Positions 1 to 56,972 of a stretch of 64,000 bases of DNA are shown piece after piece. Every line of letters starts with the position of its first letter. The first letter of the stretch is position 1. The DNA lies in contig JAUSJC010000010.1 of the NCBI GenBank assembly GCA_030647775.1, forward strand, positions 433,334 to 497,333, in the 5' to 3' direction. Source of the stretch: Candidatus Curtissbacteria bacterium. Its GTDB lineage: Bacteria; Patescibacteriota; Microgenomatia; Curtissbacterales; GWA2-41-24. The notes beneath the pieces are model-generated. The model did no database searches and was not told the origin of the DNA. It was given only the letters and a program-made list of their open reading frames with translations. A program made the translations under genes and the position numbers.

Positions 1-134
1 TGTCCTTTGAAAGCAAATTAAATAAATTAGGTTACTCAGAGGTCGTATCCAAGATTATTCCGGTTGTAGTTATGGATAACTATAACGAGGTATTGCAACA
101 ACTGGCCGATAACCAATCAAAACAAAAGGCATGA
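1..134 (+). CDS. 3' end of a CDS that starts upstream of the window (...VVMDNYNEVLQQLADNQSKQKA*); its TGA overlaps the ATG of the next ORF
   Basis: open frame to TGA at 132-134 forming an ATGA overlap with the 131 ORF; too short for the ORF track. Confidence 0.3.
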   Translation, partial: SFESKLNKLGYSEVVSKIIPVVVMDNYNEVLQQLADNQSKQKA

Positions 135-340
135 ATGGCATTATGTTGAAAAAAATTAAAAGTCAGTATATTCACCTAATAATTTCTCTGGTTTGTTTAG
201 TTATTGTCCTCTATTTTGGAATCCTTATTTACAAAGAGTTTAAACCACAAAGTTACGATGCGAAGTATATGCATTGCCTAGAACTTCGAAACGATTTGGG
301 GTTGGGGTTATGCCTTAAGCAATTAGGCTCGAAAAAATAA
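131..340 (+). CDS. small hypothetical membrane protein (one TM helix)
   Basis: 69-aa ORF with a hydrophobic segment LIISLVCLVIVLYFGILIY. Confidence 0.35.
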   Translation: MNGIMLKKIKSQYIHLIISLVCLVIVLYFGILIYKEFKPQSYDAKYMHCLELRNDLGLGLCLKQLGSKK

Positions 341-374
341 AGAGGATTATTTCTCCAAATTAATTACGGATGTT

Positions 375-1004
375 ATGGACAGAAACGGTGATTATTCAGA
401 TTATTTAACAATTATTAAGTTTGCTGTAGAAAATATTTCTAAAGTAAAAAGTGTTGATGGGATAATATCATGTTTTCAAAACTCAATTGAAGACATCACA
501 GACAGAGATGAATTACATATGGCTCAACTTATATCAATGAATATCCCTGGACATGAAAACTATTTATTCAAGTTCAAAGAAAATTGCAGCTCATTTGGTG
601 AATTTAGTGTGGATTTTATTCCTACTAATCCGGAGGAGTTTACGAGAAATGGGATACGAGCTCTAGGGGGTCTAACTACTGAACCTTTATTTGATCAAAA
701 GCAACTCGCAAACTTTCGAGTTCAATTATTTGCAGACGGTTTATTGTCATTTACAAAACTAAGATGTAAAGTGATATTTGACTACATTATTAAGCAGTTT
801 GGTGAACCTAACCAATCTCCAATAGCAAAAGAGCACGCAAAGTTTTTAGAAGAAACCTGTGGAACTGAAATTAACTGCTGGCATTTTCAAAAAGAAGAAA
901 AAGATTACTTAATAACATTCTACTTTTTTAGGGATCCTAATAATATTAGGTCTTATGCTTCATTTTCAATATCGCTAGTCTTTCAAAATAAAGATAGATA
1001 CTAA
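375..1004 (+). CDS. hypothetical protein
   Basis: 209-aa ORF with no recognisable motif; AT-rich accessory context. Confidence 0.5.
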   Translation: MDRNGDYSDYLTIIKFAVENISKVKSVDGIISCFQNSIEDITDRDELHMAQLISMNIPGHENYLFKFKENCSSFGEFSVDFIPTNPEEFTRNGIRALGGLTTEPLFDQKQLANFRVQLFADGLLSFTKLRCKVIFDYIIKQFGEPNQSPIAKEHAKFLEETCGTEINCWHFQKEEKDYLITFYFFRDPNNIRSYASFSISLVFQNKDRY

Positions 1005-1055
1005 TTAAGCTCTGCTTTGAATTTTGGACTAAAATGATAAAAGATTAAGATAAAG

Positions 1056-1631
1056 ATGGACAAAACTTCTAAAACTCCCCTCCAGTACTTCGCTTTTACT
1101 AAAAATAACAAGCCCGATGGGAAATACTTGGCTATTGAAGTTTGGCCAGATGGATCTCCGAATAGAGTGAAAGGACGATACCTAGAGATAGATGCAAACA
1201 CTTTTTCTACAGACGAGACGAAATTAGACAGCCTCATTGCATATTGGGAAAAGGTAGCAAGTGATGAGGGATTTGAAAAGCCAATGATTACCATTCAGGC
1301 AGACTTTGGAATTGGCAGTGAGCTTGCCTACGCTTATACGGACGGTAGAGAAGAAGTGCCGCCAAATGCTAAGTCATATACTATCAAACCCCGATTTGAC
1401 AAAAATATCTTTCTGATGAGAACCGGAGGAGACGGTAAATCTCTTGTATACAGCAGCCCGCTCGACTCACCGACCATACGGGAAGAAATCTCTAACTTCA
1501 ACAAATTATTGGTGCAGTTTTTCAATGGAGCCTTTTATGAGGTGCTTACGGAATACTCGGACAGAGATATGGGGTGGGAACTGCTTAATGATCTTGTGAT
1601 TGATAACGCAAAACTTAGATCACCCAAATAA
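1056..1631 (+). CDS. hypothetical protein, translationally coupled to the downstream PP2C phosphatase
   Basis: 191-aa ORF; stop TAA overlaps the ATG of the next gene (TAATG at 1629-1633). Confidence 0.55.
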   Translation: MDKTSKTPLQYFAFTKNNKPDGKYLAIEVWPDGSPNRVKGRYLEIDANTFSTDETKLDSLIAYWEKVASDEGFEKPMITIQADFGIGSELAYAYTDGREEVPPNAKSYTIKPRFDKNIFLMRTGGDGKSLVYSSPLDSPTIREEISNFNKLLVQFFNGAFYEVLTEYSDRDMGWELLNDLVIDNAKLRSPK

Positions 1632-2422
1632 TGAACCCCAATCGTAGTAATAGTCCGGGGGAAATCTCCTTTAGGTATTCTGGACGATCTATTCCAAGTA
1701 TTGAGCATCCGGACCGGAATGAAGATTCAATCGCTTATGATCCTGAAGGAAGCTGGGCGGCTGTACTGGATGGTTTAGGTGGGACAAAGGCGGGTAAAGA
1801 AGCTAGCAACAAGGCACTGGAGGTAATAAAACTTAGACTCGAAGGCTGGAAACTAGAGGATGACCTTAAGGTTGAAGAGAACCTCAAAACAATGGTTAAA
1901 AAGGCTTCTTTGGCAGTAAGTAGGCAAGTTCCGGATGGATTAACTACAGCAGTTATTACCAAAATAGTTAGCCTTGAGGGTCAGAAGATCTTTTTTATAT
2001 CCAGCGTTGGTGACTCTAGGGTTTATTTATTTAGGAAAGGAACTCTGATCAAAATTACTCACGATGACAGTATTGTTCCCAACCGGATAGCCCAAAAACT
2101 CGAAAATGCTACTTCTGCTGACGAACTAAGCGAATTGGAAGGTAAGGCATTTTTGCTACGAAGCATTGTTACTCAATCTGTCGGTCAACTTGAAGAATTG
2201 GAAGTTCATGGTTATTCGGTAATTGCGATGATCGGCGATAAGTTGATCCTGACTTCTGATGGCATCCACGATAACTTAACCTTTAACGAAATAGAAGAAG
2301 TCGTTGGACACAGCGGTGATGTGGCTAAATTACTGGTTGAGGCGGCAAGCAAAAGATCCAAAGAAAATCATTTCAGGTCAAAGCCTGATGATATATCAGC
2401 CATTGTTATTGAGGCGTATTAA
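1631..2422 (+). CDS. PP2C-family Ser/Thr protein phosphatase
   Basis: motifs AAVLDGLGGTKAG (PP2C DGxGG), ISSVGDSRVYLF, LTSDGIHDNL. Confidence 0.8.
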   Translation: MNPNRSNSPGEISFRYSGRSIPSIEHPDRNEDSIAYDPEGSWAAVLDGLGGTKAGKEASNKALEVIKLRLEGWKLEDDLKVEENLKTMVKKASLAVSRQVPDGLTTAVITKIVSLEGQKIFFISSVGDSRVYLFRKGTLIKITHDDSIVPNRIAQKLENATSADELSELEGKAFLLRSIVTQSVGQLEELEVHGYSVIAMIGDKLILTSDGIHDNLTFNEIEEVVGHSGDVAKLLVEAASKRSKENHFRSKPDDISAIVIEAY

Positions 2423-2442
2423 ATCCTCCGGGTCATGGAATT

Positions 2443-2928
2443 TCATTTTGATTCCGGAAGGATTTCATTCAGACGGGCTAGTGCTGCCTCTACCGCCTCA
2501 TTAAGACTATCGTTGACCTTTTCTGCCTTATATCTACCTCTAAGTTTATAAGTCATATCAATCGCATCTTTTCTGACTTTATTATTGGGAAGGCTAAAAT
2601 AGGCTCTAGCCGATTGTTGGTTACGTTGGATTTGAATTAACTTTGCATCGGGGATTTTCCTTACTACGAACTCGATTTCTTTGTCTGTCATATCATTGGG
2701 AAAAATAAATTTGTCTATCTCCGAAGAATTAAGAAGTTGCCCATGTTTTTTAAGCACATCTTCTTCCGGTAAGTATTTTTCCATCAACGGCTGCCATCCT
2801 TTACTTCTGGTTAATTTCTGGGGGTTTTTAGCACTCGCCTTGGAATATCCGGCGTCGATCATAGATTTGCTGACATTTCCACCATTTTCCACCAATTTTG
2901 TAGCTGCTAATTTTTGCTTGGTGGTCAT
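2443..2928 (-). CDS. phage terminase small-subunit-like HTH protein (TerS-like); the full-length copy
   Basis: N-terminus MTTKQKLAATKLVENGGNVSKSMIDAGYSKASAK matches the TerS HTH pattern (KQ..F...Y...GN...A...AGYS); the ORF could extend to 2964 if the upstream Met is used. Confidence 0.6.
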   Translation of the reverse strand: MTTKQKLAATKLVENGGNVSKSMIDAGYSKASAKNPQKLTRSKGWQPLMEKYLPEEDVLKKHGQLLNSSEIDKFIFPNDMTDKEIEFVVRKIPDAKLIQIQRNQQSARAYFSLPNNKVRKDAIDMTYKLRGRYKAEKVNDSLNEAVEAALARLNEILPESK

Positions 2929-3029
2929 TTTTTGCGATTCTTTCCGATAAAAAAAGCGACTCACATAAAGATTCGATCTACATCTTCATATGAACCGCGC
3001 CGGTTTTTCCGTTAAGCGATACGATTTAA

Positions 3030-3458
3030 TTATAACATTGGCTCTGGCAATTTCCTTACCATTTTTTCAATTTCAGCTACAACTTCATCGGCAAACTTGT
3101 CTAAAAACTGATAGTCTTTAAGAATTGCCCTTTTAACTCCTCTTTGCTTCGCCTGTTCGTTAAATTCCGGCACAGATGAAATTGCAATAACTTTGTCTCC
3201 TCCAAACCTTTCTATATCAAAAACGTGGAACGAGCCGCCGAGCTTACAATCTCTGTCCAAAAGGACAATATCAAATTCAGCTTTGGGGTTACTGTTGACA
3301 TAATTTTCGACTTGGGTGTAGTCAGACAAGCTAATTATGCAGAACTCGTACGGCTGGTCGCCTTCGAGCCGTGAGAGCCTCCCCAAGAGCTTTGAAAGGG
3401 TCAGTAGGTCATCTTCTAAGATCAGAACCTTTTTACTTAATATCATGGAAAAATACAA
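3030..3458 (-). CDS. standalone CheY-like response-regulator receiver domain protein
   Basis: KVLILEDDLL ... DIVLLDRDCKLGG ... KVIAISSV has receiver-domain architecture with no output domain. Confidence 0.55.
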   Translation of the reverse strand: MYFSMILSKKVLILEDDLLTLSKLLGRLSRLEGDQPYEFCIISLSDYTQVENYVNSNPKAEFDIVLLDRDCKLGGSFHVFDIERFGGDKVIAISSVPEFNEQAKQRGVKRAILKDYQFLDKFADEVVAEIEKMVRKLPEPML

Positions 3459-3487
3459 ACGTTTGCTCCATAGATTTGAAAGATTAC

Positions 3488-3961
3488 TTATTTTTCTAGT
3501 TCTTCTATACGTGACTTACTAAGTTTCCAAAGTTTTTTATCAACTAGATAGCCGTTTTGCATTTGAGTTTCTTGATAGTCTTTAAGAGTGAGAATCCTTG
3601 CCTCTCGCCATTTTTTGTTGCTAAATTTTGTTAAAGCTTCTTTGATCGCTTCATCATCGCTTGGGTATTGGATGAGCATAATTTCAGTTTCCTCAAGAAG
3701 TTTCACGTTATCATGCAATCCTTGTTCATAATAGTAGGCTTCCATTTTGTTAAGTGCCCCCTGCAATATACCTTTAGGGTATGGCAATATTGATTCAGGA
3801 ATATTTATGTCAAAAAGCATTCTTACCCCTCCACTATGTTCAAGATGCACTCCCCATATTGAGACAATATTTTGTGCTTCTTCTAGGGTTAACTTTTCAG
3901 CAATATGCTTTGATCGCATTTCGTCAAGTTCTTCTGCTCTTTTCATTAAATCGACACTCAT
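3488..3961 (-). CDS. hypothetical protein
   Basis: 157-aa ORF co-oriented with the receiver gene; no recognisable motif. Confidence 0.5.
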   Translation of the reverse strand: MSVDLMKRAEELDEMRSKHIAEKLTLEEAQNIVSIWGVHLEHSGGVRMLFDINIPESILPYPKGILQGALNKMEAYYYEQGLHDNVKLLEETEIMLIQYPSDDEAIKEALTKFSNKKWREARILTLKDYQETQMQNGYLVDKKLWKLSKSRIEELEK

Positions 3962-4038
3962 ATTTTCACTATTGCATAGTAGTTACAGCAAGACAAGTTG
4001 CTTTCTAATATTATCTATTACTCAACATTTTTGAAACT

Positions 4039-4213
4039 TTAGGATTCTTTGAGATGGACTATTTTCGTGTCTAGCCGGTTTTCATTATAAGTGGGTTGTG
4101 TGTTCAGTGGGTGGGATTCGATTACACCTTTTAAATCATCCACGACCAAATGAGTATATTTTAAAGTGGTATTTAGGTTCGAATGTCCATCAATTCTCGC
4201 CAGCCTTTACTTT
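4039..4213 (-). pseudogene. 3'-terminal fragment (about last 58 codons) of a tyrosine integrase gene paralogous to 7625-8650
   Basis: minus-strand translation ...GHSNLNTTLKYTHLVVDDLKGVIESHPLN... parallels the intact integrase C-terminus VGHSSLNTTLKYTHLVVDDLKGVMENHPLN; nucleotide similarity of 4125-4213 to 7705-7795. Confidence 0.7.
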
Positions 4214-4337
4214 CAGTCAATTTTTGAGGGGTTTTAGCAGTATTTTTAGAATAACCGGCAGACTTCATCGCTTCACCGATATTTCCACCATTTTCCACCA
4301 ATTTTGAAGCTGCCAATTTTTGTTTAAAAGTAGCCAT
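4173..4337 (-). pseudogene. truncated 5' fragment (about 55 codons) of a second TerS-like HTH gene, fused out of frame to the integrase fragment
   Basis: MATFKQKLAASKLVENGGNIGEAMKSAGYSKNTAKTPQKLTESKGW..; 4205-4337 is about 80 percent identical to 2800-2930; the reading frame then runs into integrase-derived sequence and stops. Confidence 0.7.
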
Positions 4338-4419
4338 ATCTTTATTATCCCACAGTCCACGGTTATTAGATAAGTTTACCTGGTGATATAATTTCCAGGC
4401 GAAGTAGCGGAATAAATTT

Positions 4420-6180
4420 ATGAAAATTAGAAGTCTCACAATATCGCACTTTCGAGGAATACAAAGCCTGGAATGGAAACCAGCTAAGGATCTGATTTGT
4501 TTGATAGGCCCCGGCAACAGCACTAAAACAACCGTTCTCGACGCTATAAGCATGGCTCTCACTCCTCACTTCTCGGTTAATTTAACAGATGCCGATTTCT
4601 TCAACTGTGATGTCTCCCAAGGAATACAAATCGACGTAGTATTATCCAATATACCTGACGAGCTTCTTAGTTTCGACAATTTAGGTGGCATGATTTGTGG
4701 TGTGAAAGACAATGGTGAGGTTGTTCCAGACCCAATTCAGAACACAGAAAAGGCGATAATAGTGCGATTTAGGGCTGATTCGAGTTTAGAGCCAGTTTGG
4801 GAAGCATACAAACCAGACTCAGAGCTGCCTCCTCTTAGGCTTAGTTCTAGCATGCGAGCAAGCTTTGGACTATTTAGATTGGACGAACGGGTAGATGTGC
4901 ATATGCGTTGGAGTCGAGGGTCTGCACTAGCATTGCTTACAAGCGGTACGGATGCAACGGCTTCTGTAATCGCCCAGGCAAGACGGGCAGCACGAGCAGC
5001 AGTTTTTGGTATCAGTGACGAAGGACTTCGGTCGACAACTCAAATTGTGACAGAAGCAGCTCGTAAATTTGGTGCTACTAATTACACAGAACTTCGTCCT
5101 GGAATAGATCCAGCAAGCTTGAATAATGGCTATGGCTTGACACTCCATGATGGTGAAATTCCGGTGACGAATGAAGGGCTCGGGGTTCGACGACTAACAA
5201 GCTTAGCTATCCAAGATGCAGGAGCGACCAACGCCTCAATTGTTTTAATTGACGAAATAGAGCTAGGTTTAGAGCCTCATCGTCTATTGCACTTGATAAA
5301 CATTTTAAGAAAAAAGGTTGATGGGAACTGCCAAGTTATTTTAACCAGCCATTCCCCGCTAGTAGTGGAATCCTTAGGGACAAATATAGCAAGGGTAATG
5401 AGTCAAGGCTCTACAACGACAATTAAAGAAATTCCAGAAGAAGTTGCCAGTCTGGACTCTGACGCCATGCAAAAGATGATCAGATCAGGACCATCAGCCA
5501 TGCTTGCAACAAGAGTAATTGTGGTCGAGGGGACGACAGAAATGGGCATAATGCGAGCCTATTGTAGGGACTGGGATCGGGAACGAGAGCAAAACAATCG
5601 GAACCCGCTAGCAATTATTGGAACTGCTATTAGGAACGGGCAAGGTGATGATGTATGTCTCAAAAGAGCAGAAAGTCTTGCAAAGCTGGAATATGCGGTC
5701 ATGGCAGTCTTGGATAGTGACAAGCCCCTCCTAGCTGAGGAGCAGGCAGCGATAAGTGCAGGAGCCTCTGTCGTAAGGTGGGGGAATGGAATGGCTATAG
5801 AAGAAAAAATTGCAAGTGAAATTCCTGAAGACAAGCTCTCCGACCTGGTTACGCTCGCAGTTCAATTCAATACTACAGAAAACCCTTCAGAATCAGTGTT
5901 GGGAGCAATATCTGCCCAAATGCCAGGTAGTCCTACTCTTAGTAGTGCTAACCCAACAGACTGGACTGCTCCAATGGCCGACATCCGGGAAGCAATTGGA
6001 AAGGCTGCAAAAAGAAACAAGTGGTTTAAAGTCGAGGATAAGGGAGAAAAATTGGGCGAATTGCTTATTGAATCAATGGCTGATATGCAGGGAACAGATT
6101 TGGCAAAAAAGATGAACCTCATACGAAATTTTGCCTACACAGAAGTAGACCCACAGGAAGCAGAGGGCGAGGATGGATGA
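4420..6180 (+). CDS. gajA: OLD-family ATP-dependent nuclease (N-terminal ABC-type ATPase plus C-terminal Toprim), GajA-like
   Basis: Walker A region LIGPGNSTKTTVLDAI; Walker B IVLIDEIELGLEPHR; Toprim glutamate VIVVEGTTEMGIM and DxD in AVLDSDKP; 586 aa; overlaps the downstream helicase gene. Confidence 0.75.
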   Translation: MKIRSLTISHFRGIQSLEWKPAKDLICLIGPGNSTKTTVLDAISMALTPHFSVNLTDADFFNCDVSQGIQIDVVLSNIPDELLSFDNLGGMICGVKDNGEVVPDPIQNTEKAIIVRFRADSSLEPVWEAYKPDSELPPLRLSSSMRASFGLFRLDERVDVHMRWSRGSALALLTSGTDATASVIAQARRAARAAVFGISDEGLRSTTQIVTEAARKFGATNYTELRPGIDPASLNNGYGLTLHDGEIPVTNEGLGVRRLTSLAIQDAGATNASIVLIDEIELGLEPHRLLHLINILRKKVDGNCQVILTSHSPLVVESLGTNIARVMSQGSTTTIKEIPEEVASLDSDAMQKMIRSGPSAMLATRVIVVEGTTEMGIMRAYCRDWDREREQNNRNPLAIIGTAIRNGQGDDVCLKRAESLAKLEYAVMAVLDSDKPLLAEEQAAISAGASVVRWGNGMAIEEKIASEIPEDKLSDLVTLAVQFNTTENPSESVLGAISAQMPGSPTLSSANPTDWTAPMADIREAIGKAAKRNKWFKVEDKGEKLGELLIESMADMQGTDLAKKMNLIRNFAYTEVDPQEAEGEDG

Positions 6181-7594
6181 AGATTCTGGGCCAAACCCAA
6201 GCAGACTCCTATCAGACCTGCCTTGGTCTATTGTGCTACCCGCTGGTTGTGGTAAGACTCAACTAATTGTTGGAATTGCCGCTGCGACACCTACGGGCTC
6301 TAAGCCTCTTTTAATATTAACGCACACTAACGCAGGAGTTGATGCTCTTCGCAGCCGATTACGGAGACTAGGTGTTGAGCCCAAAAAGTATGATTTGCTC
6401 ACTATAGATAGTTGGGCCAAATTTCTTTCTGGCCACTTCCGTGTTTTGGCAACTAGTAACGACTCCTTAGCGGTAAATGAGGGCGATTGGTCATCAATAC
6501 GTGCAGGAGCCTTAAAAGTTATCGAGTCTGAACATATAGCAGATTTAATAAGAGCAAGCTATTCAGCTTCAATAGTAGATGAGTATCAAGATTGCGATCC
6601 AAGCCAACATGCCATAATTTCCAAGCTAAAAGAATATATACCAGTTGGTGTGCTTGGAGACCCCCTTCAGGGGATCTTTGAATTTGGCAGTTCAAGTGTG
6701 GTGGATTGGGACGCGGTAGAAGCTATTTTTCCAACAAAAAGCCTAGAGATAAAACCCTATCGCTGGATTGAGCGTAATCCTGAGTTAGGAGAGAGTCTGC
6801 TCGCAATACGAAAAAGATTATTGAAATCACAGCCAATCGATTTGTCACAGGAGGAAAAAATAAATTGGATTGAGGCCTCACCGAAGAACCAAAGAGATGT
6901 CTGCTTTGAGGCTCTTCATCGAGAAGGAAAGGTGATCGCCCTCCATCAGCAAGCCAATCAATGTTATAGCTTAGGAAGAAACCTCAAAGGGTGTTTTGGA
7001 GTAATGGAGGAGATTCAGTGCAGGATTGTAAGAGATTTTATAAAAATAGTTGATGAAGGAGACTCTGGCAAAATTGCATCAGCAACATTAAAGTTTGCTC
7101 GTGATTGTTGCATAGGTATTGGCAATCCTCTTGATAAAAAGTGCGAAACGGATTATTCAAATAAAATAAAAAGGAAATTTCAAAAAGGAAGTAAGCCAAG
7201 CGCCTCCATATCTGCCTTGAACGACATAGTTGACAATCCTAGCACGAGAAACATACGCATAGCCCTCAAAGCTTTAAGAGACATAGGGGAAGTTTTTCGC
7301 CGCGAAGCCTGGGTTATCTGCGTTAAAGTGCTTGAAGCGATGGAATTAAATCCGGAGAAAACTGGAATGGAAATATTAGACAAAATCCGAGGGCGAACTC
7401 GATTTATCGGGCGCTTTGAAAGGAAACGATTACTTTCCAGAACTTTACTCGTAAAAGGTCTAGAATATGACGAATGTATTGTTTTGAATGCCGATGGAAT
7501 GAACGCCCGTAATTTGTATGTTGCTCTAACACGGGGCATAGATAAGGTTACAGTGCTTAGTTCTAGCCCAGTCATCACACCCACAGGCTTCTAA
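6173..7594 (+). CDS. gajB: UvrD/PcrA-like superfamily-1 helicase, GajB-like
   Basis: Walker A LPAGCGKTQ; motif II IVDEYQDCDPSQ; 473 aa; 8-nt overlap with the OLD nuclease gene (translational coupling). Confidence 0.7.
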   Translation: MDEDSGPNPSRLLSDLPWSIVLPAGCGKTQLIVGIAAATPTGSKPLLILTHTNAGVDALRSRLRRLGVEPKKYDLLTIDSWAKFLSGHFRVLATSNDSLAVNEGDWSSIRAGALKVIESEHIADLIRASYSASIVDEYQDCDPSQHAIISKLKEYIPVGVLGDPLQGIFEFGSSSVVDWDAVEAIFPTKSLEIKPYRWIERNPELGESLLAIRKRLLKSQPIDLSQEEKINWIEASPKNQRDVCFEALHREGKVIALHQQANQCYSLGRNLKGCFGVMEEIQCRIVRDFIKIVDEGDSGKIASATLKFARDCCIGIGNPLDKKCETDYSNKIKRKFQKGSKPSASISALNDIVDNPSTRNIRIALKALRDIGEVFRREAWVICVKVLEAMELNPEKTGMEILDKIRGRTRFIGRFERKRLLSRTLLVKGLEYDECIVLNADGMNARNLYVALTRGIDKVTVLSSSPVITPTGF

Positions 7595-7624
7595 GTTTTT
7601 GTCTTGATTAAACTTTGTCAAACA

Positions 7625-8650
7625 CTAGTTAATCGTAAAATCGGGAACTTGCAGATTTTCCGCGCTCTCTGGCTTTTTAGCCACATTTAGAGGATGGTTT
7701 TCCATTACCCCTTTTAAATCATCAACCACCAAGTGTGTATATTTTAAAGTGGTATTAAGGCTCGAGTGGCCAACAATCCTTGCTACCTTTAGTGCCGGAG
7801 CTTCTGCTCTTATCAATTCCGTAATAAAACAGTGGCGCAGAAGGTGTAAATGTACCCGTTTCTTAATACCAAGGATTTTTGCCCGTGTTTTAAGTTCGTT
7901 TATGAAGGAGTGGGCAGCAATACGTTTGCTATCCTTAAAAAATGATTTGAAAAGGGGATCTTCCGGTTTAGCCTTTCTTATACTAAGCCACTCTTCTAAC
8001 CTTAAGCCTAAATCGGTAGGTAGGGGCACTAGTCTTGGTTTATTAAATTTGGCGTGTCGTATACGGATAACCATGTCGCCAAAATCAACATCCCCGACAT
8101 CAATAGCCACGGCTTCTGACCGTCTAAGCCCAGTACACGCCACCAACTCAATAAAAAAGTCGTAATATGCCCGATCAAGATACATGTGGCATTTATCATA
8201 GTTTCGTGGGCAGTTAATAATAGCCCTAATTTCATCTACAGTTAGCAGATCCGGGAAGAACGGATCGCTTCTGTTAGCTTTAATACAATATGAAATGTCG
8301 TCCGGCAAAAATCCCTCTTCCAGCCACAACCAACGCAAAAACTGCTTTGTGGATGAAATAATCGAGTTCACCGAAGCCGTAGTAAGACCCTTTTTCTTTC
8401 CCAAGCCGTTGGTTGATTTAGATTTCTGGTCTTTGCAAAAAAGGATGTAATCTCTGGCGGTATCTTTGTTTATTGGTTTCCCATCTATAAAAATAGGAAA
8501 TCGGCGCAAATTGTACCAATTTCGTTGGATTGTCTTTTCTGAAAGCCCTCTATAGCGGTAAAAATCGCCAAATTTGGCAAGAAATCGCTCCATTTGGGAT
8601 TTTTTTACTATTTTGCCCCTTTTACTTGTGTATGACATATAATAAACCAA
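7625..8650 (-). CDS. int: tyrosine site-specific recombinase / phage integrase
   Basis: C-terminal catalytic region HLHLLRHCFITELIRAEAPALKVARIVGHSSLNTTLKYTHL (R..HxxR..Y signature); N-terminal SAM-like domain. Confidence 0.85.
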   Translation of the reverse strand: MVYYMSYTSKRGKIVKKSQMERFLAKFGDFYRYRGLSEKTIQRNWYNLRRFPIFIDGKPINKDTARDYILFCKDQKSKSTNGLGKKKGLTTASVNSIISSTKQFLRWLWLEEGFLPDDISYCIKANRSDPFFPDLLTVDEIRAIINCPRNYDKCHMYLDRAYYDFFIELVACTGLRRSEAVAIDVGDVDFGDMVIRIRHAKFNKPRLVPLPTDLGLRLEEWLSIRKAKPEDPLFKSFFKDSKRIAAHSFINELKTRAKILGIKKRVHLHLLRHCFITELIRAEAPALKVARIVGHSSLNTTLKYTHLVVDDLKGVMENHPLNVAKKPESAENLQVPDFTIN

Positions 8651-8691
8651 GCATTTTGGCCACTTTTGCAGACCAAAACGTTTTAATTAGT

Positions 8692-9804
8692 ATGTCCTAT
8701 CAACCCAAAGTAGCATTAGTACATGATGATTTCGTCCAGCAAGGCGGAGCGGAAAATCTGTTTGCCGAGATCGCCCAAATCTATCCAAATGCCCCAATTT
8801 ATACATCACTGGTCGATTGGAATAAACCGCCTATGGGAATAGACCGAAATAGGGTCCGACCCTCTTTTATGCAGAGAATCCCCTTTGCCGCAAAATTTTA
8901 TAAATTACTTTTGTCTCTCTACCCTTTGGCATTTGAAAGTTTCAATCTTTCCGCCTTTGACGTGGTTATTTCATCAACCACCCGTTTTGCCAAAGGCGTT
9001 GTAACCCCGCCAGATACGATCCATATTTGTTACCTAAACTCCATTCCCAGGTTTCTTTGGCATACCGACCATAAGAAAAGTTATTTGCCGTCCTCTCTCG
9101 AATCTATTTTTCGGCCCATCATAAATTGGCTAAAGCGCTGGGATATGGCTGCTGCTTCACGGGTAGATTTTTTTATTGCCAACTCCCAAAATGTTAAAAC
9201 CCAAATCAAAAAAGTCTATAACCGAAATTCCCAAGTTATCTATCCATTTGCCGATACAGATTTTTTTAAGCCCCCCAAAATTCATAACTGGAGACTGAAG
9301 AGTCAAAAATATTATCTTATTGTTTCGCGCCTGGTTCGCTGGAAGAAAATCGAAATCGCCATTCGTGCCGCCAATAATTTAGGAATCAACCTTTTTGTTA
9401 TTGGTGAAGGGCCGGACAGGAGTCGACTGAAGCACTTTGCGGGGAAGAGCACTAAATTTATAGGCAAAATTTCAAAAGAGGAGCTGCGTCAACTCTATCA
9501 AAACGCCCAAGCGCTAATTGTTACCCAAGAAGAAGATTTTGGTATAGTAACTGTTGAGGCTCAAGCATGTGGCCTTCCTGTTATTGCTTATGACCATGGC
9601 GGCCAAAAAGAAATTATCAAAAATGGCCTTACTGGTTTATTTTTCCCCTCGCAAAGCACCAAGGCTCTGGAAGATGCAATTAATGCGTCAAGTGCGGTAA
9701 AATGGAATTTAGCCGAAATTGTAAAGAACGGTCAAAGGTTCTCAAAGAAACAGTTTGTCAAAAATTTAAAAGCGAAAGTAAAAGAGTATGCCAGCCAAAA
9801 ATAA
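8692..9804 (+). CDS. GT4-family glycosyltransferase
   Basis: KVALVHDDFVQQGGAE N-terminus and the EEDFGIVTVEAQACGLPVIAYDHGG (E-x7-E) motif; start moved to 8692 to avoid overlapping the integrase. Confidence 0.8.
   Translation: MSYQPKVALVHDDFVQQGGAENLFAEIAQIYPNAPIYTSLVDWNKPPMGIDRNRVRPSFMQRIPFAAKFYKLLLSLYPLAFESFNLSAFDVVISSTTRFAKGVVTPPDTIHICYLNSIPRFLWHTDHKKSYLPSSLESIFRPIINWLKRWDMAAASRVDFFIANSQNVKTQIKKVYNRNSQVIYPFADTDFFKPPKIHNWRLKSQKYYLIVSRLVRWKKIEIAIRAANNLGINLFVIGEGPDRSRLKHFAGKSTKFIGKISKEELRQLYQNAQALIVTQEEDFGIVTVEAQACGLPVIAYDHGGQKEIIKNGLTGLFFPSQSTKALEDAINASSAVKWNLAEIVKNGQRFSKKQFVKNLKAKVKEYASQK
8850..8863. repeat. copy of the 15-bp REP-like quasi-palindrome TAGGGTC[C/G]GACCCT(A), in frame inside the GT4 gene (encodes NRVRPS)
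   Basis: exact core GGGTCCGACCC. Confidence 0.7.
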
Positions 9805-10900
9805 TCAGCGAGATTTAAAAATCGTCCTTTTCTGTGGAGGCTCCGGGACGCGCATGTGGCCGGCCAGCCGCAAAGAAAAACCCAAGCAATTCCAACCCCT
9901 GGTGGGCGATACTTCGATGTTCCAGCAGGCAATGGCCCGCATCAAAAAGGGTTTTCCCATAAGAGACGTTTTCGTTATCACCGGCAGGCAATATGTCGGC
10001 CTTGTTGTTCAGCAGGAACCGGATCTGCCCTTAGAAAACGTCATTATCGAACCGGAAATGAGGGATACCCTAGCCGCCGTCGGTTTTGCCGCCGCAGTCC
10101 TGGATAAAAAATTTGATAACCCTATCGTTGCTTCCCTTTGGGCAGCCGACCACTTGGTCAAAAATGATGACCAGTTTATTAAATCCTTAAAAGCCGCTTA
10201 TGAATATGTTAAAGATACCGGCAAAATGGTCTCAATTGACGTCAAACCGACATACCCCAATATCCATGTTGGCTACATCCAGATCGGTAAAATGATTAAA
10301 AAAGTTAACGGTCATGCTTTCTTTGAATACGTAAAACAAATCGAAAAACCGGATCTGGCAACCGCCAAAAAATACGCTGCCTCGTGGGAATACCTCTGGC
10401 ACGCCGGTTACAAAGTCTGGCATACCCAGAAAATGCTTTCTCAGTTTAAAAAATTTACACCCAAAGTTGCCAGCGGACTTGAGACTATCCAAAAATCATG
10501 GGGGAGCGATAACCAGGATGAAGTTGTCAGGCGTGTTTATCCGGATTTTGAAAAGCAATCAATCGATTATGCAATTTTTGAAAAGATGGATCCGGATGAC
10601 CTCGTCGTTTTACCGGCCGATATTGGTTGGTCTGATATCGGTGCCTGGAATATTCTAAAAGAAGAGCTTGCCCAAAACCAGACGGATAATGTTGTTTCCG
10701 GTGACGTTATTGATTTTGATTGTGAAGACTGTTTAATTTACAACAAAAGCGAAAATAAAATTGTGGCCACAATCGGTCTCAAGGGTTTAATCGTCGTCGA
10801 TACCCCGGATGGCCTCTTGGTCTGTGATAAAGATAAAATTTCCCAAGTCAAAAAAGTCATAGAGAAAATCAAAGAGACAAAGCAAGATAAATTTCTCTAA
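9788..10900 (+). CDS. manC: mannose-1-phosphate guanylyltransferase-like sugar nucleotidyltransferase
   Basis: KIVLFCGGSGTRMWPASRKEKPKQFQPL matches the ManC/GMPP N-terminal signature. Confidence 0.75.
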   Translation: MPAKNNQRDLKIVLFCGGSGTRMWPASRKEKPKQFQPLVGDTSMFQQAMARIKKGFPIRDVFVITGRQYVGLVVQQEPDLPLENVIIEPEMRDTLAAVGFAAAVLDKKFDNPIVASLWAADHLVKNDDQFIKSLKAAYEYVKDTGKMVSIDVKPTYPNIHVGYIQIGKMIKKVNGHAFFEYVKQIEKPDLATAKKYAASWEYLWHAGYKVWHTQKMLSQFKKFTPKVASGLETIQKSWGSDNQDEVVRRVYPDFEKQSIDYAIFEKMDPDDLVVLPADIGWSDIGAWNILKEELAQNQTDNVVSGDVIDFDCEDCLIYNKSENKIVATIGLKGLIVVDTPDGLLVCDKDKISQVKKVIEKIKETKQDKFL

Positions 10901-10909
10901 AACCCCAAA

Positions 10910-11560
10910 GTGCTATACGATTTATTAAAACGCACGATCGATATTATTGGCAGCCTCATAATTTTGGCCGTCTTTTCTCCTGTTATCTTAATTACTGCCG
11001 TTTTAATTAAGATTAGTTCCCCCGGGCCGGCCATTTATACCCCCCTGCGTGTCGGCAGGGACGGCAATCTTTTCAAGATGCTTAAGTTCCGCAGTATGTA
11101 CATGTATAAAATTAACGGCAAATTTGTGCATGCTAAAAAATACCTTGAGAAAAATCCCAAACTTATGCGCGAGTACCGGGAAAATAGTTTTAAGCTTGCT
11201 CACGACCCGCGGGTTACGCAGATTGGCAAATTCATTCGTAAGTTTTCCATCGATGAACTGCCGCAGCTTATTAATGTCGCCAAAGGCGATATGTCGCTTG
11301 TCGGCCCTCGGGCTTACCAGGAGGATGAGCTTACCCATCAGCAAAGGGTCTATCCGCATACCAAAAAATATGTAAAAGTTATTTTAGAAGCAAGGCCCGG
11401 CGCATCCGGCCCCTGGCAGGTTTCCGGCCGTTCTTTTATTAATTTTGATAAAAGGGTCATAATGGATGCTAAGTATGTCGAGAGGAGATCAATCTTATAT
11501 GATCTTTGGATCATGATGAAAACTCCAATTGCCATGATTACCGGCAGAGGAGCGGTATGA
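10910..11560 (+). CDS. polyprenyl-phosphate sugar phosphotransferase (bacterial sugar transferase, WbaP/EpsL-like)
   Basis: LKFRSM ... DELPQLINVAKGDMSLVGPR motif; N-terminal TM helix. Confidence 0.8.
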   Translation: MLYDLLKRTIDIIGSLIILAVFSPVILITAVLIKISSPGPAIYTPLRVGRDGNLFKMLKFRSMYMYKINGKFVHAKKYLEKNPKLMREYRENSFKLAHDPRVTQIGKFIRKFSIDELPQLINVAKGDMSLVGPRAYQEDELTHQQRVYPHTKKYVKVILEARPGASGPWQVSGRSFINFDKRVIMDAKYVERRSILYDLWIMMKTPIAMITGRGAV

Positions 11561-13371
11561 GAAAAAGAATCATCTTCATTTTAATAGCAATCGTTATCAT
11601 ATACGTCATCTTTGGCGTTCTTACGGCTCTTTCCATCAAAAAGGCAATTGGTACTATAAACAGTGCGTCCTCCGCTATCAAAGTCCAGGATTTGGATAAG
11701 GCAAAAGCAGATCTAAAGACCGCTAAAGGGGAGTTCCAAACCTCCCAGAAGATAATGGTAGTTTTTGCCCCAATTCGTGTTATTCCGCTTCTTGGCTGGT
11801 ATGTTGCCGATGCCCAGAGGGGCGTCGCGGCCGCCGTTTCCGGGCTTGATGCCGCCTCAACCGCGGCCGACGCAATTACTCCTTACGCTGATGTCCTTGG
11901 CTTAAAAGGTAAAGGTACTTTCTTAGGCGGTACTGCCCAAGAAAGGTTAGCAAAAGCAATCGAAGCACTTTCCAAAGTTGGCCCCCAGCTTGACGAGGTC
12001 GGTGCAAGTCTTGCTTCAACCAGGAAAGATGTCGACCAAATAGAGTCTTGGCGCTATCCAAATTTTTTGCCCGGCAGTCCGGGCGCCAAAATCGACAATA
12101 TTAAAAAAGCCGTCGACCAATTTGAATCACTAATCGTTGATTCGCGCCCCCTGCTTTTGGTTCTTCCCCAAATCATGGGTCAGGACAAAGAGCGAAAGTA
12201 TCTCGTCCTTTTCCAAAACGACAAAGAGCTTCGCCCCACCGGCGGGTTTATTACCGCTTACGCTGTTTTTCGGGTCAACAAGGGTGTTATTTCCTCAGAG
12301 GGATCCGATGATATTTACCGTCTGGACAGTACGCTCTTGAAAAAGGTCTCGGCACCCGCTCCAATGGTTAAGTATTTAAATGTTTCAAACCTTAACATGC
12401 GGGATTCCAATTTTTCACCTGATTACCTTGCCTCAATGAAAACCTTTGAAGACCTTTATCAGTCTTCATCCGGCAAAAAAGATATTGATGGCATCATCTC
12501 TTTAGATACCCAATTTGTTCTTTCGATGATGCAAGTTTTAGGCCCTGTCGATGCTTACGGCACCAAGTTTACCATTGATAAAGTTGATGCCTGCTCCTGT
12601 CCGCAGATAATTTATGAACTCGAAAGATACGCCGATCAAATCGTCGCTTATGAAAAAGGTTCCCGAAAAGATATTATCGGCGTTTTAATGCAAAGCCTGA
12701 TGGCCAAAGCTTTCAATGCGCCAAAAGGCCAGTGGCCAAGCCTCCTTGAGGCAATCGTCAATGACCTTCGCCAAAAACATTTGCTTCTCTATTTCCATGA
12801 TCCCCCAAGCCAGGCCGCCGCTGAAAAAATTAATTTCGCCGGCAGAATTTACAACTACGACGGTGATTATTTGCACATTAACGAAGCCAATCTTGGAGGC
12901 GCCAAATCCAACCTTTATGTTCAGGAGAAAGTGAGCCAGGTTGTTAAAAAGGCCAAAGACGGCAATTTGGATAAAACGGTTACGATTAGTTACAAATATC
13001 CGAAGGAAATGGATAATTGCAATTTGGAGCGTAAAACCGGCCTTTGTCTTGCCGGAATCTACCAGGATTATATAAGAATTTATGTTCCCAAGGGATCAAA
13101 GCTGATTAAATCCTCCGGAGCCGAAGTTGCCTTCACAGCCTCCGAAGACCTGGATAAAACGGTATTTGAAGCTTTCTTTACGGTCCGCCCTCAGGGCACG
13201 GCCAAAATCGAGCTCGAATACTCTGTTCCTATCAAAGTTACAAACCAGTACAAGCTCCTAATCCAAAAACAGCCGGGCACGGAAGGCATCATGTACGATA
13301 TCGATGCCCTCGGCCACCGCCAAAAAGCTTTCCCGCTCACAAACGACAAGGAATTGATCGTTAAGCTTTAA
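11557..13371 (+). CDS. DUF4012 domain membrane protein (cell-envelope polysaccharide associated)
   Basis: LVLFQNDKELRPTGGFITAYAVFRV is the DUF4012 hallmark; N-terminal TM; ATGA overlap with the previous gene. Confidence 0.7.
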   Translation: MRKRIIFILIAIVIIYVIFGVLTALSIKKAIGTINSASSAIKVQDLDKAKADLKTAKGEFQTSQKIMVVFAPIRVIPLLGWYVADAQRGVAAAVSGLDAASTAADAITPYADVLGLKGKGTFLGGTAQERLAKAIEALSKVGPQLDEVGASLASTRKDVDQIESWRYPNFLPGSPGAKIDNIKKAVDQFESLIVDSRPLLLVLPQIMGQDKERKYLVLFQNDKELRPTGGFITAYAVFRVNKGVISSEGSDDIYRLDSTLLKKVSAPAPMVKYLNVSNLNMRDSNFSPDYLASMKTFEDLYQSSSGKKDIDGIISLDTQFVLSMMQVLGPVDAYGTKFTIDKVDACSCPQIIYELERYADQIVAYEKGSRKDIIGVLMQSLMAKAFNAPKGQWPSLLEAIVNDLRQKHLLLYFHDPPSQAAAEKINFAGRIYNYDGDYLHINEANLGGAKSNLYVQEKVSQVVKKAKDGNLDKTVTISYKYPKEMDNCNLERKTGLCLAGIYQDYIRIYVPKGSKLIKSSGAEVAFTASEDLDKTVFEAFFTVRPQGTAKIELEYSVPIKVTNQYKLLIQKQPGTEGIMYDIDALGHRQKAFPLTNDKELIVKL

Positions 13372-20203: not shown

Positions 20204-20309
20204 GCTTCACCTCTGTTCTTAAGGCGGAGTTTTTCGTTCAGAATAAACTTTTTCAAGTAAAGAGAGATTAAATTGATCTTCTTTTAGGGGGTTGACAACG
20301 TATACGGTT

Positions 20310-20346
20310 ATGGTGAAAAATGGTAATAGATGGTGATAAATGGTGA
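20310..20346 (+). promoter_or_regulatory. four direct repeats of ATGGTRA at exact 10-bp phasing, immediately downstream of a TTGACA (20292-20297), upstream of mraZ; candidate MraZ operator/promoter
   Basis: repeats start at 20310, 20320, 20330 and 20340; MraZ proteins are known to bind short direct repeats in their own promoter. Confidence 0.5.
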
Positions 20347-20468
20347 TCTGCCAGCTGGCGGAACCACCTACTCCTGATAGCATATCGCTGCCCGGGAGAA
20401 AAGTCCGCTAAATGCGGCGAGGATGTAAGGGACCCTCCTTCACATAAAGTTTCGGAGGGTTAAAAAAA

Positions 20469-56899: not shown

Positions 56900-56972
56900 G
56901 CACGCATAGCTCAGCGGTTAGAGTGCTTGTATCACACACAAGAGGTCCCTGGTTCGAATCCAGGTGCGTGCA
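56900..56972 (+). tRNA. tRNA-Val (anticodon CAC)
   Basis: cloverleaf folded by hand: acceptor GCACGCA/TGCGTGC; anticodon loop aTCACac; T-loop TTCGAAT; no encoded CCA. Confidence 0.8.

Follow-up and report, generated by a model that had tools for sequence, protein, structure and literature searches.

A small terminase-integrase fusion scar in an integrase-anchored defence island of a Candidatus Curtissbacteria genome

Candidate Phyla Radiation (CPR) bacteria have tiny genomes, and the ways in which they gain and trade defences against phages are poorly understood. Phage satellites of the phage-inducible chromosomal island (PICI) type are islands of ~7-18 kb that combine an integrase, a regulatory switch, a replication module, a packaging gene and att repeats, and that are mobilised by a helper phage; in satellites of the Staphylococcus aureus pathogenicity island (SaPI) type, the small terminase subunit (TerS) redirects the packaging of the helper phage. 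Here, we describe a recombination scar at positions 4039-4337 (minus strand) of a 64,000-nt stretch of a Candidatus Curtissbacteria metagenome-assembled genome (MAG; contig JAUSJC010000010.1), hereafter the window, to which all coordinates refer unless a locus is named. In the scar, a TerS-family gene contributes its first 51 codons, and these are joined to the final 55 codons of an integrase gene of the same family as int1, an intact integrase gene nearby. We take the position that two diverged modules, each made of an integrase, cargo and a TerS gene, were juxtaposed at this site, and that an illegitimate join between the TerS gene of one (TerS1) and the integrase gene of the other (int2) left the scar. 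It is dead, without gene function of its own, and it documents a single exchange down to the base pair. The chromosomal site is a fixed one, marked by two conserved integrases, where the cargo is wholly different between related genomes.

Several described systems share parts of this arrangement. In the tycheposons of Prochlorococcus, successive integrations occur at one site, newcomers push older elements inward and fragmented integrases are left behind; these elements possess a tyrosine recombinase and variable cargo, some are PICI-like with terS, and they use tRNA genes as insertion sites, with partial tRNA repeats at their ends (bioRxiv 10.1101/2020.12.28.424599). The Curtissbacteria locus is similar in its one-site accretion with a fragmented integrase, but differs in that no tRNA site and no repeat were found, in its CPR host and in its anti-phage cargo. 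ARAGORN detected no tRNA gene in this locus (L004) or in the five related loci described below (L013, L014, L015, L016 and L019), and the nearest one in the window was at 56900, so that the tRNA association typical of tycheposons was not found. Variable defence systems at a fixed slot of a conserved element are also a feature of P4-like satellites, with a hotspot between int and psu that adjoins the integrase, and of phage-inducible chromosomal minimalist islands known as PICMIs, with a hotspot between prim and fis (both as summarised in PMC10803314), although the core genes of these elements (psu, delta, sid, alpA, primase and fis) are absent here and the integrase belongs to another family. 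Satellites with terS have been reported from marine bacteria as well. The present locus shares with PICIs and SaPIs a small integrase-bearing island, a TerS without large terminase (TerL), portal or capsid genes, and defence cargo; its units are however much smaller, with ~2-4 kb between integrase and TerS, and profile and repeat searches found no replication gene, master repressor or att repeat in 2443-8650. The process as such, namely accretion at one site, fragmented integrases, illegitimate deletion and defence cargo beside an integrase, is thus already known in other bacteria from tycheposons, P4-like satellites, PICMIs and PICIs. The host group, the conserved two-integrase island and the recurring orphan TerS genes are new here.

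Based on the listing of open reading frames (ORFs), the minus strand of the region carried an integrase followed, beyond two plus-strand genes, by ORFs of 54, 157, 142 and 161 aa, which is the order given in a preliminary description of this stretch. That description had also recognised a fusion between the 5' part of a TerS gene and the 3' part of an integrase gene, and both paralogies were recovered when the 17.4-kb locus L004, which extends 6.6 kb leftwards from the start of the window, was compared with itself. One direct repeat (D1) links 2780-2919 to 4186-4325 (140 nt, 76% identity) and a second (D2) links 4103-4207 to 7686-7790 (105 nt, 80% identity), each with E = 1.7e-22 (blastn). Apart from these pairs, the self-comparison of the locus showed just a 70-nt repeat lying outside the window and one match of 25 nt (E-value 0.07). 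At the protein level, the TerS fragment (TerS1') was 69% identical to the full-length paralogue TerS2 over 49 aa, and the integrase fragment (int2') was 71% identical to int1 over 45 aa.

TerS1' (4173..4337, minus strand) is a 54-aa remnant ORF, in which codons 1-51 correspond to the helix-turn-helix (HTH) domain of the TerS family. Its product reads MATFKQKLAASKLVENGGN...SKGWRELMD, followed by IRT and a stop codon, and the TerS-derived part stops near 4185. Its closest relative was P0041 (80% aa identity), and it gave weak matches to phrog_51 and Terminase_2. The second part, int2' (4039..4206, minus strand), consists of the last 55 codons and the stop codon of a second int1-family integrase. 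Its frame reads RLARIDGHSNLNTTLKYTHLVVDDLKGVIESHPLN...KES-stop and is open from 4206 only; the preliminary description had rightly called it a C-terminal integrase piece but had extended it to 4213. As judged from the sequence, int2' is untranslatable in its present form, because a TAA at 4209-4207 shuts the frame upstream. It aligned to residues 284-338 of the 338-aa members of the int1 family, reaching their natural C-terminus, and was 65% identical to P0092 over all 55 aa. It retains the GHS...LKYTH segment with the last H...Y of the active site, while all the upstream catalytic residues are gone. Each of the two parts therefore ends at a natural gene end, the TerS part with the N-terminal 51 codons and the integrase part with the C-terminal 55 codons.

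The position of the crossover was mapped by a three-way base comparison of the fragment with six TerS and six integrase homologues, completed by pairwise alignments. TerS similarity persists to ~4185 and integrase similarity begins at ~4206-4208, and the exchange therefore took place within ~20 nt, between 4208 and 4185. Over this crossover zone (4185..4208) both parental homologies hold, with family-typical residues in both frames (GWRELMD in the TerS frame and ARIDGH in the integrase frame). Such a patchy microhomology of ~20 nt between unrelated parents is the signature of illegitimate, microhomology-guided recombination. The heptamer CCTTTAC/CCTTTAG (GTAAAGG/CTAAAGG on the minus strand), at which the crossover had previously been placed, turned out to be only the left edge of this overlap. 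Beyond the stop codon, int1 and int2' share ~40 nt of weak similarity, and they were the only pair to do so among the seven integrase 3' ends aligned. Predicted promoters and terminators at 2300-4600 were as numerous as in shuffled sequence.

The intact integrase, int1 (7625..8638, minus strand), is an Xer-like tyrosine recombinase (Pfam Phage_integrase, PF00589, E = 4e-30). Its start was set by orthology at the ATG at 8638, where the N-terminus MSYTSKRGK aligns with the starts of the orthologues, the mechanical ORF reaching a TTG at 8650. The best sequence matches in the Protein Data Bank (PDB) included XerD, with the R, HxxR, H and Y motifs aligned, and comparison with a solved Xer-like chain showed the GLRRSE, NK..VP, HLLRH and GHS..Y segments expected of a tyrosine recombinase. 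Orthologues with 73-84% aa identity were found at the same position in L013, L014, L015, L016 and L019, at least three of which are labelled Curtissbacteria or have Curtissbacteria synteny; together with L004 they form the set of six int1 loci. Searches with int1 gave two loci in the JGI metagenomes, no match in the IMG/VR viral contigs, and a 54% identical homologue in Woykebacteria, in a different context among neighbours typical of mobile genetic elements (MGEs).

A spacer of 50-54 nt separates the int1-family gene from one and the same divergent host operon in all six loci. The operon, related to the cell envelope, starts with a glycosyltransferase gene (GT; 8692..9804, plus strand) and continues with NTP-transferase, Bac_transf and DUF4012 genes; it has the same order and orientation in L013, L014, L016 and L019, with aa identities to the other loci of 53-60% for GT and 49-77% for the NTP-transferase. 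In the window, the spacer (8639..8691, 53 nt) is conserved and forms an imperfect palindrome with inverted-repeat arms at 8639-8659 and 8673-8693. It holds the motif GGTCTGCAAAAGTGGCC (8654-8674, minus strand); in the form GGTCTGCAAAAGTGRCC this motif is conserved across four genomes and occurs once in the window, where no match was expected by chance, and it was carried in the four loci whose spacers were read. The palindrome could serve as an operator, as a promoter for both genes or as a site bound by a recombinase. Some features recall an Xer/dif chromosome-dimer system, in which integrative mobile elements exploiting Xer (IMEX) accumulate at the dif-like palindrome of a resident Xer recombinase: the closest solved relatives of int1 are of the Xer type, the spacer palindrome is conserved and imperfect, and the position is conserved. 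Other features speak against it: insertions were never found at the palindrome, a second, diverged integrase copy is present, and GC skew, used as a test for a terminus or dif site, showed no switch in the window. The locus differs from an integron, which has an IntI-type integrase, an upstream attI site and arrays of attC-flanked cassettes, as the cargo here lies 3' of the integrase and not at the constant 50-54 nt upstream spacer; a repeat search found no attC-like repeated elements in 1-12000, and IntI4 was only a weak PDB match of int1.

What lies on the 3' side of the integrase changes from genome to genome. This slot is occupied by a Gabija system here, by a SIR2 protein in L014, by an RnlA-like protein in L015 and by another Gabija subtype in L016 (11165-13784), in which GajA (532 aa, 5e-215) is only ~28% identical to the GajA of the window and GajB has 352 aa (6e-116). 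The variable cargo starts within ~40 nt of the integrase stop codon, and homology between orthologous loci collapses directly after that codon in every pair; the alignment of the seven integrase 3' ends with 160 nt of flank revealed no shared motif. A second conserved integrase, int3-like, was present 3-8 kb beyond int1 in every locus, and the islands had only int1, int3 and the operon in common, with nothing else shared between or beyond the integrases. The locus is thus an integrase-anchored defence island with cargo hotspots. The interval 2443-8650 described earlier is only part of this island, whose length is 17 kb or more and which contains Gabija as well as Shedu, a PD-DExK nuclease and a PIN pair, the last three lying with int3 to the left of the window.

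The other end of each module is formed by the TerS family. TerS2 (2443..2928, minus strand) is an intact, full-length gene of 161 aa that ends 20 nt from a convergent gene, with no large terminase nearby. Profile matches were faint: Terminase_2 (PF03592) scored 16.5 bits, below the curated cut-off of 26.1 and over the N-terminal HTH only, phrog_51 matched 38 aa with E = 1e-3, and a profile search of PDB sequences returned only TerS DNA-binding domains (2cmp and 4zc3, E 0.26). The TerS2 model (predicted local distance difference test, pLDDT, 85.9) had the SF6 small terminase 3zqq as its best PDB fold match (E = 1.9e-3, with a TM-score of only 0.3). The gene context was far clearer. In L001, in L002 and in the majority of 31 IMG/VR contigs, full-length homologues, 40-58% identical, lie directly upstream of a TerL-sized gene, after which comes one of portal size, and the family is likewise immediately upstream of TerL/portal genes across L001-L003. 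In the IMG/VR contigs, the gene after the TerS homologue usually encodes 400-730 aa, and six of the ten tested matched Terminase_6N, GpA_ATPase or Terminase_3C; in L002, portal and capsid genes follow downstream. Because of this context, the family is identified as the genuine small terminase of uncultured phages, which probably infect CPR hosts. TerS2 had no match among the cultured-phage records of INPHARED, and the family occurred at only seven loci in the GTDB species genomes.

Two of these viral loci showed peculiarities of their own. In L030 (2523-4070, IMG/VR), the gene right after the TerS homologue encodes a Cpn60/GroEL-type chaperonin (E = 1e-39) and not TerL. In L002 (880-2975), ORFs of 221 aa and 287 aa between TerS and the portal gene are split by an MT-A70 methyltransferase gene, and this segment may correspond to a TerL gene that an insertion has interrupted. 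In the window and L004, no TerL or portal gene was found, and 50 TerL/portal-type queries were all negative in the island loci; one weak TerL-type match at 20249-20452, intergenic and in front of a 133-aa ORF, was dismissed as noise.

TerS2 was 85% identical to P0023. TerS1' and TerS2 are thus each closer to relatives elsewhere (80% and 85%) than to one another (69%), which argues against a recent duplication in situ. From the juxtaposition of two such units we infer an order of events in which an older unit, made up of int2, the genes for the 157-aa protein and a receiver-like protein, and TerS2, would have been joined at its operon-proximal end by a unit made up of int1, Gabija and TerS1. 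The newcomer would have inserted in a site-specific manner next to the operon, pushing the older module inward and leaving the two units head to tail. A microhomology-guided, illegitimate deletion would then have joined codon 51 of TerS1 to codon ~284-290 of int2, removing two thirds of TerS1, the junction between the modules and ~85% of int2. The join inactivated the integrase of the inner module and the TerS of the outer one, and the product is a composite island with a single working integrase and an intact Gabija operon. The inner unit would be immobile on its own, and any present-day mobility of the island is likewise inferred. We favour this route of successive insertion followed by deletion, at a level of confidence somewhat short of even. 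It accounts for paralogies that are far beyond chance, for int1 orthologues that sit at one site and are followed by unrelated cargo, and for a second, diverged copy of an int1-family integrase, which speaks for mobility. The int1 homologue in Woykebacteria, with its MGE-like surroundings, points the same way, and tycheposons provide a documented precedent. The nearest relative also switches at the boundary between GT and int1, int1 being closest to L013 and the operon to L014, L016 and L019, and this suggests that the integrase module has a history of its own beginning at the spacer. Relatedness is incongruent across the island as a whole: for int1 the nearest loci are L013 and L015, for the NTP-transferase they are L014 and L019, and for int3 it is L016.

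A number of results weigh against this route. Short-word blastn found no att repeats linking the int1-GT region (8590-8720) to the 17.4-kb locus; the best att-type matches were of 9-12 nt, at chance level and several of them in the wrong orientation. The spacer motif gave only chance-level matches and no att pair in the window and in all the loci, and small-seed repeat scans of five intergenic junctions yielded nothing usable. No empty site was found, though no search starting from the GT operon was made. An intact integrase-cargo-TerS element, which the preliminary description had proposed to look for elsewhere together with its att sites, was not found, and the five other int1 islands held no TerS within the 5-10 kb of flank covered. 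The integrase also occupies the same position in all six loci, which speaks for residence, and its nucleotide identity to the orthologues (0.55-0.81) compares with mostly 0.42-0.82 for the adjacent operon. As it is only modestly less diverged than the genes next to it, within a similar range, long residence is as plausible as recent arrival, and int1 may be a long-term resident of the defence island rather than a freshly integrated element. The earlier idea of an element family that swaps defence cargo accordingly holds in so far as different defence cargo follows int1-family integrases in different genomes, while int1 itself, a positional orthologue, may be a resident.

Finally, the same product can be obtained in one step. 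In naturally transformable bacteria, homology-facilitated illegitimate recombination combines a homologous anchor on one side with an illegitimate join at a short microhomology on the other, so that foreign DNA is gained and part of a resident gene is lost. It is a process and not an element, and its product is indistinguishable from that of a tandem insertion followed by a deletion. Applied to this locus, it (or an unequal crossover) would have brought in an allelic island from another Curtissbacteria strain, with the left end exchanged by homologous recombination at or close to the spacer or the GT operon, and the right end joined illegitimately at the TerS1/int2 microhomology. The donor would have carried the GT operon, int1, Gabija and TerS1, and the resident allele int2, the 157-aa protein, the receiver-like protein and TerS2; int1 and int3 would be resident anchors of a hotspot whose cargo turns over by recombination and not by integrase action. 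Since this route gives exactly the same outcome, the earlier proposal of head-to-tail copies and a deletion is borne out as regards two diverged integrase...TerS units and a microhomology-type join, but the tandem stage is dispensable. The single-step route agrees with the positional orthology and conserved spacer in six of six loci, with an integrase diverged to a similar degree as its surroundings, with the collapse of homology at the integrase stop codon, with the lack of att repeats, with islands sharing only the two integrases and the operon, and with the patchy microhomology, which is typical of illegitimate joins. It nevertheless requires a donor that already had the order integrase-Gabija-TerS, and no such locus was found; the switch in similarity right at the spacer is a better fit to the end of an element than to a random homologous endpoint, and the diverged second integrase copy is a prediction of tandem accretion. 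On balance we regard this alternative as a serious one, though less likely than the favoured route.

The phage context of the TerS family raises the question of whether the modules are two decayed prophages, each TerS being the first gene of a late operon from which TerL, portal and capsid genes were lost, and the scar being one of several large deletions. The position of the family immediately upstream of TerL/portal genes in L001-L003 and most of the 31 viral contigs agrees with this, as does the order from integrase to TerS, which matches that of prophages. Neither unit, however, retained any repressor, replication, lysis or structural gene or a fragment of one, the TerL/portal-type queries failed in all the island loci, and TerS2 is complete and stands 20 nt from its convergent neighbour. 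Moreover, orphan TerS genes recur in L005, L006, L018 and L051, which argues for retention over random decay. Prophage remnants are therefore an improbable source of the two modules.

Still less probable is an internal deletion in a single element that had TerS upstream of the integrase on the same strand, which would derive TerS1' and int2' from one unit. Operons with small genes end in the recombinase gene in L006 and L014, and the one in L006 includes TerS, but upstream of the int1-family gene all six loci had only the 50-54 nt spacer and the host operon, so that a TerS in front of the integrase does not match the organisation of the int1 family. The least credible explanation is an assembly chimera of TerS and integrase reads: the sequence does come from a MAG, and the same reads may underlie both available assemblies, but the junction and the whole of 1-10751 were 100% identical (blastn) in the NCBI MAG contig and in an independent Logan assembly of run SRR13727527 (locus L004), the fragment differs by 20-24% from both full-length paralogues on the contig and is therefore no chimera of those two, and an error in the k-mer graph is unlikely because exact matches between the parents there amount to a few bases at most.

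The orphan TerS genes hint at satellites. They were found in other small recombinase-bearing islands, including L006 (Curtissbacteria), with a serine recombinase adjoining tRNA-Leu genes, L018, with a serine recombinase and helicase and HATPase cargo, and L051, which holds the closest relative of TerS1' between type I restriction-modification/GmrSD cargo and a serine-recombinase module; in L005, TerS was present without TerL in the flanks covered. We put forward, as a speculative and rather doubtful proposal, that these genes mark undescribed minimalist phage satellites of CPR bacteria (Patescibacteria), composed of a tyrosine or serine recombinase, a TerS that hijacks the packaging of CPR phages and a slot for defence cargo. 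The GT-adjacent two-integrase island of Curtissbacteria would be a landing pad for such elements, and the scar the fossil of two of them fusing. If orphan TerS genes do serve satellites in packaging, the known range of phage satellites would widen to include CPR bacteria.

Concerning the cargo of the outer module, the preliminary assignment to Gabija, a system in which an OLD-family ATPase-nuclease (GajA) and a UvrD-like helicase (GajB) are encoded next to each other, was confirmed by PADLOC. gajA (4420..6180, plus strand, 586 aa; Pfam AAA_15/AAA_21) matched GajA PDLC04168 over positions 1-568 of 570 with E = 9e-156, and gajB (6173..7594, plus strand, 473 aa; Pfam UvrD-helicase), convergent with int1, matched GajB PDLC04173 over positions 6-469 of 471 with E = 3e-127. 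Both genes are full length and overlap by 8 nt (6173-6180), and 4420-7594 is predicted to encode a complete Gabija system. Its components are ordinary; what is notable is where it lies, in a CPR genome and 3' of a conserved integrase. The GC content of gajA (0.43-0.48) contrasts with that of the module to its left (0.36-0.39).

In the inner module, the first gene after int2' encodes the 157-aa protein (3488..3961, minus strand), which had no match in Pfam, PHROG or PADLOC and none in the IMG/VR viral contigs. Its homologues were unusually conserved, with 54-77% identity across CPR lineages (Levybacteria, Andersenbacteria). One homologue is the terminal gene of an element with a serine recombinase, MerR-HTH_17 and KAP_NTPase, found in at least two different flanks (L056-L063); this indicates that the 157-aa protein is itself borne by MGEs. 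The next gene (3030..3458, minus strand, 142 aa) had been labelled a receiver protein. It had no Pfam match up to an E-value of 10, and the label rests instead on an AlphaFold2 (AF2) model of low confidence (pLDDT 57.6) with a (beta-alpha)5 topology, whose top Foldseek matches in the PDB were the receiver (REC) domains of ComE, HP1043 and PmrA (TM ~0.6). An LEDD motif on strand 1 and an LLDRD motif on strand 3 were recognised by eye. The model suggests that the product is probably a stand-alone receiver (CheY-fold) protein.

Convergent with TerS2, a plus-strand module (131..2422) encodes proteins of 69, 209 and 191 aa and a PP2C phosphatase (Pfam PP2C_2, E = 2.5e-9), and may belong to the TerS2 unit as cargo. 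The module opens with a gene for a 151-aa protein (weak DUF7176 match) that starts to the left of the window, and the product is 50% identical to one encoded in L005 (1805-5456), likewise by a module that converges on TerS. The other genes of the two modules differ, with no homology between the 69-aa ORF (131-340) and the 62-aa ORF of L005, and the TerS-convergent module (1-2422 here, and L005) may be a variable system. The GC content of 1-1000 (0.32-0.34, compared to 0.40-0.47 around it) suggests that this segment was acquired separately.

Further to the left, L004 encodes the third integrase, int3 (3798-4748, minus strand), which is 34% identical to int1, the Shedu protein SduA (2479-3651, E = 3e-128) and a PD-DExK/NucC-like nuclease (DUF6602; 1368-2294); the same flank (1-6656) also holds the genes for an 89-aa protein and a PIN protein. 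This toxin-antitoxin-like pair is bracketed by a 70-nt direct repeat (328-397 and 1352-1421, 86% identical), which could be a regulatory region present in duplicate, or else mark the ends, resembling att sites, of a small inserted cassette. An 85-aa gene (4745-5002) overlaps the start codon of int3 by ATGA, like the iolg gene in PICMIs. Its distant homologues, 30-37% identical, lie upstream of the recombinase in L015 (directly) and in L051, and upstream of TerS in L005, and the gene may encode an excision or directionality factor.

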